A stretch of 64,000 nucleotides of DNA, from NCBI GenBank assembly GCA_020137815.1, contig CM035356.1, forward strand, positions 6,696,001 to 6,760,000, given 5' to 3'. Below are positions 97 to 60,600 of this stretch, piece by piece. Numbering within the stretch: position 1 is the first letter of the stretch; each line of letters starts with the position of its first letter. The DNA is from Hormiphora californensis. Taxonomy: Eukaryota > Animalia > Ctenophora. The position numbers were made by a program, and so were the translations under genes. Under the pieces are notes generated by a model. It was not told the DNA's origin, did no database searches, and saw only the letters and a list, made by a program, of their open reading frames with translations.

Positions 97-3000
97 CCAC
101 ACCGGGGACAGGACCCCGTGTTTCCGGGAAGAAGGGCGTTCGAGATGGAGGAAATCACGATGTAATTCCAGGGGATGGGTGAAAAGGAGAGGGGCAGGAA
201 GGATCAGGGGGTCTGGAGAAAAAGCCTGCAACTCTGGAGATCAAAAAATAGGGATTGTCCGGAGATATTATGGGCTAAGATGTCAGGACAATCAACGAAA
301 ACTGGATCAGAGAATCTGGGGAGTGTAAAACGAAGGGGAAGGGGTGCGAAAGGTGGAGAGGGGGGAGACGAGGGTGAGAGAGAGAGAGAGAGAGAGAGGA
401 GAGAGAGATAGAGAGGAGAGAGGAGAGAGAGAGAGACGGGAGAGGGAGGGAGATGAGAGAGAGAGAGGGAGGGAGAGAGAGAGAAGAGAGAGAGAGAAGA
501 GAGGAGAGAGAGAGAGAGAGAGAGTAGCGAGAGCGCGATCACGCTCCTCTATTGAAGGCGATCTATTTAGCGTATATCTCTCTCTCTCTCTCTCCCTCTC
601 TCTCTCGCTCTCTCTCTCTTTCCTTCATACCTCTCCCTTCATAACATCGAGGCTGGATTTGGGGGCCAGGGCAGCACCCTTGATAGGTTCCCCGACCCTC
701 TCCTTCCAGTTCTCCTTTATCACTCCACTGTCACCTATCTCTGCATACGTGAACCCGTGGTCGCCCTGTGCAGATAGAGACGGTTAGGTTCATTGGGATT
801 TAATTGGGATTTTTCACGATTTTTCCTTCCTACAAAGCTGCTCAGAGAGAGCAAAATACTAAAATAAGCAAAGATGGGGACTTGCCACGTCACTTCGCTA
901 ACTTTAGGAGCACCATATGACGTCACTAACCTTGGCATAAAGGAGCACCATATGACGTCACTAACCTTGGCATAAAGGAACATCATATGACGTCACTAAC
1001 CTTGGCATAAAGGAACACCATATGACGTCACTAACCTTGGCATAAAGGAGCACCATATGACGTCACTAACCTTGGCATAAAGGAAGACCATATGACGTCA
1101 CTAACCTTGGCATAAAGGAAGACCATATGACGTCACTAACCTTGGCATAAAGGAGCACCATATGACGCCACTAACCTTGGCATAAAGGAGCACCATATGA
1201 CGTCACTAACCTTGGCATAAAGGAGCACCATATGACGTCACTAACCTTGGCATAAAGGAGCACCATATGACGTCACTAACCTTGGCATAAAGGAGCACCA
1301 TATGACGTCACTAACCTTGGCATAAAGGAGCACCATATGACGTCACTAACCTTGGCATAAAGGAACACAATATGACGTCACTAACCTTGGCATAAAGGAA
1401 GACCATGCGAGTATCCTCGTCCCACAAGGAGAAAGGGTTGCCAGATCCGCGACCATGGGAGAGGGTACTAATTTCAGAGGACAAGGATCCAACAGATACA
1501 GTCTTGAAACATCTCTCCTTGTTTTTGTAGCCTGGGATCAGTATTAGTAAATGAAGTGGGGGGAATGTTTAACTGAAAAATAAAATAAATCGCCTGACTG
1601 TTAGCTAGGAAAAAACGGGAGACCATGCCGCGAGGAGGGTTAATTGATTAATTAAGGGGCTGGGTAATTAATTAAGGGGCTGGGTAATTAATTAAGGAGC
1701 TGGATAATTAATTAAGGGGCTGGATATACCGTGTGGCCCAAATTAAAGGGAGGGTACGTTGGCCTTCTTTTCACTCAGAAGTTTAATTTCAATCACTCTG
1801 ATATTTTGACACAATGTCTGCATGGGTACTCATTCGAGGAATCCGAAGTTTCAAATCATAAAAGTTGAAAGTTCATTAATGAACTCAATTTTTCGTTTTT
1901 CGGGTTTTTTGAGGTTTTCTCTTGATTAAATTCCATTTAATAATTTAAAAAACCGCCATACAATAGAACAAGTATCAACAAATGGCAATCTGAATTTTTA
2001 TTAAAATTGAATCAAGTTTAGTGGGTGAAATAAGTTACTTAAAGATGATATTTTTTACCAAACATCGATTTTGACCTGTTTTGACCAGAAATCGGTAAAT
2101 TCAGGCGCTAAAAATCTGTACGGCCACTACACTTGATCAATTTTGATGTTAGCCGGAATTTAAGCTATCTATCTTAAAATTCATTTTTCCGACTGGAATG
2201 AATCCTAAATGAACTTGAAAACAGGAATGCTTTTTGGAACCAGAATTTCACAGTTGCCTTCGGGTATCGATTTCCTTTCAAACGCGACTAATTTGAGCTC
2301 AATTGGACCACCACAAGAGACACTTGGTAACGAAGTTACCCCTCTGTCGAGGGGTAACAGAACCGCCTACCCGTTTTTAAGTAAATTCCTTAAAAAGTAT
2401 CGCTGACACGTCCAGGCATGGCACCCCACCCCACAATTACTATACTTTACGTAGGGCGCGATGGCACGCCAGGACATGATATGTCACTAGTCCAAGATTT
2501 TAGCCTCCGAATCTGCTCTTTTTTACCAACTTTGTCGAATTTTCACGGCCAAACTATAACTTAATTTGAATTGATTTTATCACAATTGTCCTAGGTATAG
2601 TCCACAGCACCATCTCACCGAATATGAAGTTTCAAAAACGCGATCTTCATCGAAATTCAACTTCAAAAACAGTGTTAATGATGAAATAACAATTTCATGG
2701 CTGTAGAAAAAGGATTTAGCCAAATCTGTTTTATGGTTGAGGCGGTATTAATTTTTGAAAAATATGAAACCGATTCTGTTACCCCTACATAGGGCATTGC
2801 GATAGTAAGGCACGTTTTAGCGTGCCCGCAATGTAGGGGGAACTGCGTTACCAAAAGAGACACAGTGTTTAGTTATCTAACCCTAGGTTTGGTCATCTGA
2901 CACCTAATGAGACGATAGCGTCATTACTAAGTGCCAATAAGCAGGTGTAACGGACGAGTATCACGTATCACGTCTGCTAATGAGGATGGTGTACCGATAC

Positions 3001-57600: not shown

Positions 57601-60600
57601 CAATGAATCCTTGTAACCTTCCACCTAAGAAGAGAGAGGGAGGGAGAGAGAGGTTAAATATTCAGTAGGTGCTAGCTAGGTCAGAGAGTAGGAGTCATAG
57701 AGATTATAAGAGCTAGCAGAGAGATGCCGGAGACTGCTGCGGGGGAGCTCTGCTCTCGGCTCGCTCTCTACTCCAGCCTGCGGACGAGCTAAGTCAGCTC
57801 AGCTCTCCTAGCCGCTCTAGCGCCCTCGCGTCACTCCTCAGCGCGTCTCTCTCAGCCTTGCGGCGCGCCTCTCCCTCTCCTCTCTTCTCTCTCTCTTCTC
57901 TCTCTCTCTCTCTCTCCTCTCTCTCTTCTCTCTCTCCCTCTCTTCCCTTCTCTCGCATGGAGCAGAGACTGCTGTGAATACGGTTGTTATAATAATGACG
58001 ATAAAGGGATTCTGGCTGGCATATATAATGTGCCTGGGCATATAATTTGATGTTTGATAAATAGCTAGTTATCCCTACTGCTATATACTACAGGAGAAGC
58101 TGCTCATGTTGTCTTGTCTAGAGGGATACAGGGGCTAAGTAGTGGTGAAGCACGTCCTTCAATAATAGTGGTGAGATCGCGTACTGCGTACAAATAATTA
58201 CGGGACAAAGACACATAATGTCTCTCTCTCTCCTCTCCCTCGTCTCTCTCTCTTTTTCTCTCTCTCTCTCTCACTCTCTCTCTCTCTCTCTCTCTCTCTC
58301 TCTCTCTCTCTCTCTCTCTCTTTCTCTCTCTCTCTCTCTCTCTCTCGCCCCAAATCTCCCGATATGCATGATTAGCCATAACAATAAACGATCTCTATCA
58401 CGAGCGCAAGCAGGCCCACAGCTATTATCAGAGGACACAGTGGTAAACACAGGGGGTGTAATAAGATCTGAGCAGCATTGTGTCGCGGCATGATGTTGTG
58501 CAACCCGGGGGCTAATTATGGGATACACTCTCCACTTTTTGTGGCTGAGAAAGGTGAATAGATATACTAAACGATAGTTATGGGAGACAGCTCCATAATC
58601 GGACAATCATCAGTGCGTGATATTTGGCTACAATATTATCACTTATAATTCATGAACTAACCTAAAATAGTATGGGGACCAAAGTGTATAAATTACCTGT
58701 GCACGAAGTGAGTCAACTTCTCCCTGTAGCTCCTGAAAATCCTCACTCTGCACTGTGTTAAGTGCAATACGTAGTTGCCTGATCTGAAAACAAATAAAGC
58801 TGAATTATGATCAGCTAATCTCATATTACTAGAGAAATGGCCATATATAATTCAGACCATCAGATTAATGACAAATTGCTCTGCCGAGCCCTCATAAAAT
58901 GCACTGTGAACTATAACACAAATGGCGGTTTGTACTGAAAAACAAACCTCTTTGTCCCGGTTGTTAAGTGTATGCCCCTGACTAGATAGCTGTACTACAA
59001 ACCTCTTTGTCCCGGTTGTTTAGTGTGTGTCCCTGACTAGAGAGCTCCCTCTGAAGATCCACCTCTGCCTGGGTCAGTTTGGAGATCTGGTCAAGAAGTT
59101 CTCCCTTCTCAACCTCAAACATGGACAACCTGCAGGGAGAAAATAAAACTAGAATAATCAGGCTTTTTCCAGGTTGCACTTTGTGATGTAAGTCATTATA
59201 ACTCAGGTGCTGCACTTTCTTACTGTTGTAAGATATTGTCCTTCTGGGGAGGATAGAAATAAGGTCTAAAATGGATCTACAGGGCCTATGCACTTCAACA
59301 AATAGAAACACGTTGGTTTTGTAAACCAACGTGTTTCTATTTGTTGTACTATGATCTGCTCTCGGTTCCACGCCGATAGAGCTCTCTTGTGGCCTACTGA
59401 AACAACCATATTGGGCCTCTGCAGTTCTTATAATTCAAATTTTCATGAGGGTTAAAAAGAATAAAACTATCGAACTAACGATTATATGATCTGCTGGGCC
59501 TCTGCAGTTATTATAGTTGATCGTACGAGAGATATTTACGTGGCGAGGAGAGGTTGTCGAACAATGCTACTCACGATATGATCTGCTGCTCTTGTTTCTG
59601 TTGCAGAACTCTGGACAGGGCCAGGTCATCAGTCAGTTGTTCCACGGTCCCCTGCAGACCCTCTAACTCCTTTAACCTCACCGTCAGGCCCCTGTTGTCC
59701 CGTTCTAGCTGGGTGTATTTGGTCACACTGTCAGATAACCGGGCCTCAACTTCCGATTTGTCAAATTCAAGCTGGGACGGAGGTTCAATAATGAGTTGCA
59801 CAGAGAATAATATTTCTGTAATCTAAATAAACACATTCCTCTCCACAGTCCACAATTAACCTGTTGAAAATAACTTTGCTCCCGTTTAATCTGTAACTGA
59901 AGTTCCGTTATCCGTTCCCTCGCCTCATTAGAGCCCTGATCAGGAGATGGAGAGTTCATCATTGCTGGGGAACTGCTCAAACTGGCTGCCTGTTCACGGA
60001 GGGCTCGTTCGAATTCTTGCTCCCGTAATGCAAGCTCAGACTCGTGTTCCATATTCAGCGATCTGAGCTGAGATTCAAGCGCCTGAAGGGGAGGGAGATG
60101 GAGATGGAGAGAGAGGGGAGAGAGAGAGAGAGAGAGAGAGAGAGAGAGAGAGAGAGAGAGAGAGAGAGAGAGAGAGAGACACCGCTGGTTAGAGAATCCT
60201 TGAGATAAAACTATTTTAAAAGAAACGACGATAAAAATAAGAATAAAATGAGAAGATGATGAGAATGACGGGGTGCGGGGGTTGGAGCAAACAAAGAAAG
60301 TCTAGACATGGTGGACGGGAATAACTTTGCATCAAACACATGTCATTAATAAAAACATATTGAGTTGACTCATCTAAATGCCACCACTCCTTCAACTAAC
60401 CTTTATTTTGGTCAAATAGCCGGAATCTGAGTCTTCTTTCGTATCATTTCTAGCGTTCTGAAATACATTTCAGTTTCTCAACAACAACCGGGGGTTACTT
60501 CGTTGGGGGGGGGGGGGGGTGCATCTCGCGAGCTGACCAGAATTGACCCCATAGTGGGGTGACTGGGTTGGTTACGAAGTCACCCCTATTATTGCGTATA

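Follow-up and report, generated by a model that had tools for sequence, protein, structure and literature searches.

In a window of 64,000 nucleotides of the ctenophore Hormiphora californensis (GenBank assembly GCA_020137815.1, contig CM035356.1, positions 6,696,001 to 6,760,000 of the forward strand), we found minisatellites laid across the exon-intron boundaries of a coronin-7 gene (CORO7) and of a TRIP11-like gene, each unit copying the edge of an exon together with the adjoining intron sequence. The junction-spanning repeats are confirmed as real, and by its anatomy the structure is that of the mirage minisatellites described in amphioxus, the array at the donor of CORO7 exon 6 being also a variable number tandem repeat (VNTR) of the type known from human F7. 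The structure itself is thus already known; what is new here is its extension to ctenophores and a bias of the copies towards silent differences from the exon. We put it somewhat above even odds (a probability of about 0.55) that these mirages arise and are renewed through exchange, out of register, between the edge of an exon and the same edge of a divergent allele, and are tolerated through use of the splice site adjacent to the exon.

All genes were annotated by hand and lie on the minus strand, as do all features below unless marked (+); 7 CORO7 exons, 29 TRIP11-like exons and 1 FLYWCH exon gave 72 junctions. Ungapped copies with at least 4 matches on each side of a junction were sought within 400 bases of it. 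At a threshold score of at least 12, copies were found at seven of the 72 junctions (four acceptors and three donors), always on the intron side, and the other 65 had no copy above the threshold. At the acceptor of CORO7 exon 5 (3576), a minisatellite of about 51 bp (3553..4666; Tandem Repeats Finder (TRF) period 51) holds 20 copies with about 24 exon bases each, and inspection, without a tree, shows uniform middle units and divergent ends. The donor of exon 6 (1386) is covered by a 35-bp minisatellite (906..1406; 14.3 units at 96% by TRF) that supplies 13 extra donors; the first 16 intron bases are identical in 12 of these 13 copies, and two mid-array copies are identical to the exon. Exon 2 is affected at both ends: its acceptor (6039) has eight copies with about 60 exon bases each, spaced by 127-178 bp (5980..7290), and its donor (5922) has a single copy at 5848..5862, a direct repeat of 15 bases that lies 66 bases inside the intron. 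The spacers of the acceptor array (6040-7400) are made of degenerate telomere-like repeats, in which the transcribed strand shows many branch-point-like CTAAC motifs.

Within the TRIP11-like gene, donor 59003 lies in a 55-bp tandem duplication (58942..59046; TRF period 55) whose one copy differs from the exon by four synonymous changes and by a 5-base intronic indel. Acceptor 54805 has two long and two short copies in units of 37-48 bp (54793..55000), and acceptor 53028 has two copies (53014..53158; period 51-63) with their AGs at 53079 and 53142. Two weak cases stay below the threshold, namely an exact 12-base copy of TRIP11-like donor 51249 (51159..51170) and decayed short repeats at the putative FLYWCH acceptor 35168 (35168..35240; 9-base exact match, score 11). 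All nine sites had been proposed in an earlier note on this DNA, and all nine are present at roughly the coordinates given there, though with unequal strength. When junctions are ranked by their longest exact junction-spanning match within 150 bases, these nine head the 72, with 51249 seventh and 35168 joint eighth, and the remaining 63 reach at most 8 bases. Head-to-tail units of minisatellite size occur at six arrays (periods 35, 37-48, 51, 55, 51-63 and 127-178 bp); the matches at 5922 (15 bases), 51249 (12) and 35168 (9) are isolated, without head-to-tail units.

The differences between copies and exons are predominantly silent. Over six arrays, 20 of the 29 distinct substitutions are synonymous in the frame of the exon and 21 of the 29 fall at third positions. 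Random substitution would give 26-28% synonymous changes (P = 6e-6), and selection on the exon lineage only would give 41-44% (P = 0.002-0.006); frame-shifted controls yielded 1/29 and 6/29. The bias is kept after dropping any single array (synonymous counts per array 7/9, 5/9, 1/4, 4/4, 2/2 and 1/1), and it is found as well among variants that differ between copies (13/22, P = 0.002).

A preference for junctions is plausible. Of 36 genic repeat clusters, seven cross a junction and the other 29 lie in introns; no cluster is confined to an exon, and the three largest genic arrays all span a junction. Seven terminal units lie on junctions, against an expectation of 1.05 at the intronic rate (P = 1e-4) or of 1.71 with all clusters (P = 0.002); in circular shifts (n = 6217) the mean for terminal units was 1.58, with seven or more in 0.06%. 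Stricter thresholds left these values similar.

Support from reads was taken from six DNA runs of two samples and two studies, in which 79-92% of the words of a TRIP11-like stretch are present; one of the two samples may be the assembly's own source. For 48700-51880 no RNA run was listed, which says nothing about expression. Read contigs were examined at TRIP11-like 59003 and in the CORO7 region around exon 2, from four of the eight listed runs and from X6; X4, X5 and X6 supplied the contigs described below, X7 gave none, and X8 gave none at 58360-60095. The duplication at 59003 is covered by an 812-base X5 contig with one difference and by a 110-base X4 contig with none, and among the contigs listed at 58360-60095 there is no joint that skips the copy. 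A 254-base X5 contig (5691-5944), identical to the window, spans the exon 2 donor and its copy. At the exon 2 acceptor unit, summed depth, which is not copy number, reaches 1656-2435 in X5 against about 40-90 in the flanks, and, where the flanks show several hundred, it is 10320-13727 in X4 and as high as 47473 in X6; the contig that enters the first exon 2 copy does so by just 26 bases. Unit variants at 6120 and 6141 recur in 2-7 contigs of each of three runs. The earlier note had named raw reads as a check for artefact; the short-read contigs support the repeats at 59003 and exon 2. At exon 5, gene model P0001 of Pleurobrachia bachei (EukProt) reads through an upstream acceptor copy that has a different spacer.

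The same contigs bear on the alleles. Exon alleles differ at several percent of sites, nearly all of them silent, and introns vary far more between haplotypes, often by insertions or whole replaced blocks. In the published account, Hormiphora, which belongs to one family with Pleurobrachia, has 3.2% heterozygosity and non-coding DNA with an excess of indels (PMC8527503). Among the allelic exon differences listed, 11 of 13 are synonymous, a fraction indistinguishable from that of the copies (Fisher P = 0.45). Seven differences fall within 115 bases across exon 4 in one X5 contig, three silent changes in X4 cluster 11-17 bases from a TRIP11-like donor, and in an X6 haplotype CORO7 intron 2 contains 151 unlike bases and 254 bases are missing from intron 4. 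The window's exon 5 has Met as its second codon, where P. bachei P0001 and 14 of the window's 20 copies have Leu. Around the exon 2 donor, the copy lies between two intron starts, A before it and B after it in the window, whereas in one X6 contig a B-like start precedes it and A follows; P0001 runs from exon 2 into a B-type codon, which the end of a miniature inverted-repeat transposable element (MITE) could equally give. P0153, a protein from a 661-base contig, enters exon 53028 via a different upstream sequence, a weak hint that the 53028 array may be polymorphic.

In the exchange between alleles that we favour, exons would be islands of homology at which strand exchange between homologues starts. 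The exchange would stall at the exon edge, where homology ends, and the stalled strand would re-anneal slightly upstream by microhomology, so that the junction of the other allele is duplicated. Later slippage or unequal crossover would amplify and homogenise the units, and copy sequence may sometimes be moved into functional position, where selection at the protein level would filter it. No function is proposed for the intronic copies. A broader form of the idea, in which the mirage arrays of hyper-polymorphic animals reflect template switching between homologues at exon edges and form an intronic archive of exon alleles that returns variants (e.g., the Met/Leu of CORO7 exon 5), we regard as tentative and rather less probable than otherwise; if true, it would give mirages both a mechanism and a genome-wide test, namely intronic DNA with a ratio of nonsynonymous to synonymous rates (dN/dS) well below 1.

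Several points weigh against exchange between alleles. No result directly separates inter-allelic from same-chromosome exchange. In the contigs of the two samples we found neither a TRIP11-like exon allele with the four silent variants of the 59003 copy nor a single-copy 59003 allele, the duplication being identical in the contigs of both samples. The X6 rearrangement is one contig of one run, for which deletion from a longer ancestral array would also fit, and P0001 is a predicted protein that may come from a sister species. As regards the silent bias, the exon 6 donor array is unbiased (1/4 synonymous), the exon-derived lengths were chosen by eye after the copy alignments had been viewed, trimming of ragged ends removed a non-synonymous change from the 54805 array, four copies (that of the exon 2 donor, the two short ones at 54805 and a decayed one of exon 5) were left unscored, and linked variants are not independent events. 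Since lengths were set by eye, ends trimmed and four copies left out, the bias needs replication. As regards the junctions, counting any array position gives seven against a mean of 4.5, and 13% of the shifts reach seven; the test was, moreover, made post hoc within a 64-kb window picked for the feature, and because the window was chosen for its junction repeats, the P values are too strong.

The main rival, which explains much of the same data, is concerted evolution on one and the same chromosome, through slippage or unequal exchange between sister chromatids, with the array re-seeded from, or converting, its own exon and protein selection filtering the variants. It accounts for the synonymous bias, for the uniform middle of the exon 5 array and for the exon-identical copies within the exon 6 array, and intra-allelic homogenisation has been described for the amphioxus globin gene BflGb6 (PMC3087553). 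It is nevertheless a poor fit to the single 59003 copy, with its four silent and no replacement differences and its intronic indel, and it predicts neither the swapped intron starts in X6 nor the junction preference; we consider it unlikely, though clearly the strongest of the competitors. Translation of the copies as alternative exon parts under direct purifying selection would yield the same synonymous bias, and agrees with the in-frame exon 5 copy at 3630 and with the 59003 copy, an in-frame block of 42 bases preceded by AG and followed by GT; but the other tested acceptor copies hit premature stops and end without a donor, and the spacer before the 59003 copy is just 13 bases, which leaves little credence for this explanation.

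Pure survivor bias would invoke neither a junction preference nor any later exchange with the exon: tandem duplications would be random, exonic ones purged and junction-spanning ones neutral. The 29 intronic and zero wholly exonic clusters among 36, the 65 copy-free junctions, the non-significant looser shift test and the selection of the window for the feature all accord with it, whereas the terminal-unit test (7 against 1.05-1.7), the location of the three largest genic arrays on junctions and a synonymous fraction of 69%, unexpected for neutral copies, do not, and we rate it below same-chromosome turnover. The earlier note had offered, as one of two possibilities, mutagenesis directed at the junctions, in which slippage at splice sites results from R-loops or from stalling coupled to the spliceosome. 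Its claim of seeding at junctions finds partial support in the 4-7-fold enrichment of array ends on junctions, with donors and acceptors both involved, but none under the looser null (13%). Likewise, it was right that copies extend into the intron and leave the exon intact, all of them being on the intron side, but no directed process is needed for this, because whenever a junction is duplicated in tandem, one of the copies necessarily remains joined to the body of the exon. Nothing specific was found in favour of R-loops or splicing-coupled slippage, neither of which predicts the synonymous bias; under directed mutagenesis, copies should either match their own exon or have diverged at random, and silent differences of the allelic kind would not be expected; the majority of junctions, too, are spared, so we give it only a slim chance. 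Slimmer still is the chance of an assembly artefact, that is, of false duplications through merged haplotypes or noisy long reads. Noisy duplicated stretches elsewhere in the window and two frameshifts in TRIP11-like exons would suit it, and the exon 5, exon 6, 53028 and 54805 arrays lie outside the read-contig coverage; against it, contigs from two studies span the 59003 duplication, the exon 2 units show raised summed depth and the same unit variants in three runs, and P0001 independently includes an exon 5 acceptor copy. A recent merge of two haplotypes at 59003 was rejected, as the same duplication stands in the contigs of both samples with 0-1 differences.

With regard to the choice of splice site, all tested acceptor copies lead to a premature stop except the one at 3630, which is in frame and would add 18 amino acids (for one exon 2 acceptor copy the reading began one or two bases out of place, so that it is uninformative here), and reading past either of the two donors tested brings a frameshift or a stop. 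The real acceptors do not stand out by their polypyrimidine content, in which the copies equal or surpass them. At exon 5, a CTAAC motif about 20 bases upstream is found at the real acceptor only; the exon 2 copies share theirs. According to textbook knowledge, scanning for AG begins at the branch point and not at the 5' end of the intron, and the use of the last of many AGs, which the earlier note had thought inexplicable by first-AG scanning, is therefore no paradox. Under the reading we prefer, the first donor would be chosen as in F7, and the last acceptor would be chosen by exon definition, with errors removed by nonsense-mediated decay. Selection of the first donor has been demonstrated for F7 (PMC1557585), and a tolerance of decoy sites, suspected in the same note to be unusual, is not so, being published for human F7, LMNB2 and PDGF and for amphioxus mirages. 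Two other candidates were rejected, recursive splicing as a general explanation, with AG followed by GT in just 2 of 8 exon 2 copies, and a 13-base micro-intron at 59003, as probably too short given the size limits of introns.

Amphioxus mirages have been described in Adh3, the globin genes BflGb6 and BflGb9, troponin C and PGBD5 (PMC3087553, PMC3902484). The arrays described here resemble them in having tandem units over a real exon-intron boundary, at donors and acceptors and several per gene, in a marine invertebrate host; the unit sizes are 35-178 bp here and 10-160 bp there (PMC3087553), and the uniform middle and divergent ends of the exon 5 array are likewise features of amphioxus mirages. 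The host, in contrast, is a ctenophore, and normal splicing was shown by reverse-transcription PCR in amphioxus, whereas here it is predicted. The synonymous bias and the sharing with exon alleles seen here are mentioned nowhere in the available part of the amphioxus account, which calls the mechanism unclear (PMC3087553). A 37-bp VNTR in IVS7 of human F7 has counterparts at donors of IFI6 (6-16), CBS, LMNB2 and PDGF (PMC1557585), and the array at the CORO7 exon 6 donor (14 units of 35 bp) repeats the F7 anatomy, the first unit lying over the donor and identical pseudo-donors following. The F7-type VNTRs are single loci confined to donors, while acceptor arrays predominate here; experiments on them have shown use of the first site (F7, LMNB2 and PDGF) or leakage to the next two (6-16 and CBS). 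A third parallel is offered by internal tandem repeats located at exon-intron boundaries and by the gain of introns through tandem duplication (PMC2812944; Rogers model cited in PMC3087553): there too, minisatellites overlap splice sites and could create new introns. In contrast to those cases, we see no sign of a new intron or a changed protein here, and the 309-amino-acid CORO7 frame runs through exon-adjacent sites.

Our literature search, which covered titles and the beginnings of abstracts and few subscription papers, returned no ctenophore mirage, no genome-wide study of mirages and no report of a synonymous bias. Somatic instability has reportedly been observed for the amphioxus Adh3 mirage. 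The silent-site bias provides a measurable handle on the origin of mirages, which the amphioxus paper left open. If copies do exchange with exon alleles, intronic repeats would show a false coding signal and mislead gene prediction and read mapping, P0001 appearing to be a case of a gene prediction misled by a mirage copy; such exchange would also offer a route for variation at exon edges and for intron gain. In addition, the acceptor arrays with 8 and 20 copies lend themselves to studying how a 3' splice site is chosen.

The CORO7 boundaries are based on the open frame and on alignment to coronin-7. The seven exons, joined at exon-adjacent splice sites, give an open frame of 309 amino acids whose product is 30% identical to the sea-urchin coronin-7-like protein P0025 (E 3e-39). 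Exon 1 (7507..7645) has an open frame and a weak match to DUF1899 (E 0.046) and aligns to the start of coronin-7; exon 2 (5922..6039) is placed by its open frame and the coronin-7 alignment. Exon 5 (3378..3576), also open and with the CTAAC branch-point-like motif mentioned above, has P. bachei P0001 as its nearest protein (97% identical), and exon 6 (1386..1531) is open in frame, its end matching P0001, P0022 and P0023. Across the common CORO7 exons, the window and P0001 differ by about four amino acids. In the search of representatives with CORO7, the MITE-derived peptide of P0001 dominated, the other matches being distant coronin-7 proteins and short fragments. A contig of X8, a run taken as RNA by guess, matches CORO7 exon 3 at about 82% identity as the spliced transcript of a relative; its loose ends are the ends of exons 2 and 4, and it supports exon boundaries only.

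The name TRIP11 is our assumption, taken from the label in the earlier note and from the layout of the gene, and no search confirmed it: four TRIP11-like exons scanned against Pfam had no hit, and a protein search found nothing for the exon that ends at 59003. The boundaries of this gene are based on reading frame only, and the phases of acceptors 57300, 56387, 51810 and 50363 were inconsistent in the reading-frame check. Two exons contain frameshifts, at 54647-54662 (-) and about 56652 (-), which are probably single-base assembly errors. An alternative reading of the former site is a GT-AG segment of 16 bases that fits the donor and acceptor consensus well; 9155-9173 (+) contains a comparable segment of 19 bases. 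The exon 33767-35168 (-), which encodes a FLYWCH domain (PF04500; Pfam E 5.7e-11), is nested in an 18-kb TRIP11-like intron; its donor phase is that of the next TRIP11-like acceptor (30648) on the same strand. Adjoining it is an open reading frame at 32170-33216 (+), which by its look we take to be a reverse-transcriptase fragment.

At 28121-28305 (-), a decayed copy of TRIP11-like acceptor 28121 lies 131 bases upstream of it (score 9) within an 82-bp duplication, and is possibly an old mirage. Minisatellites close to a splice site or element end, but spanning no junction, occur at 33623-33752, 49905-50115 and 1647-1726. A large inverted duplication with a noisy second arm surrounds a 32-bp satellite at 10210-13505, and direct duplicates (15906-17221 and 20662-21895) accompany homopolymer-rich stretches (about 12400-22300); these noisy duplications at roughly 10-22 kb, away from the junction sites, are probably an artefact of poorly corrected long reads. 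The stretches 43080-43750 and 44130-44830 also look duplicated by eye.

A 1.65-kb element at 1727-3376, presumably Tc1/mariner-like, is flanked by TA, has 127-bp terminal inverted repeats (97.6% identical) and sits two bases past the exon 5 donor of CORO7. A short element at 46670-46785, with inverted ends and an 8-base target duplication, we assume to be hAT-like; P0001 and P0153 run into an element of this type a short way past the exon 2 and 52894 donors, and many other proteins, P. bachei gene models among them, match its peptide. Two copies of an 800-bp element with subterminal repeats, 89% identical to each other, lie at 24260-25064 and 51920-52732.

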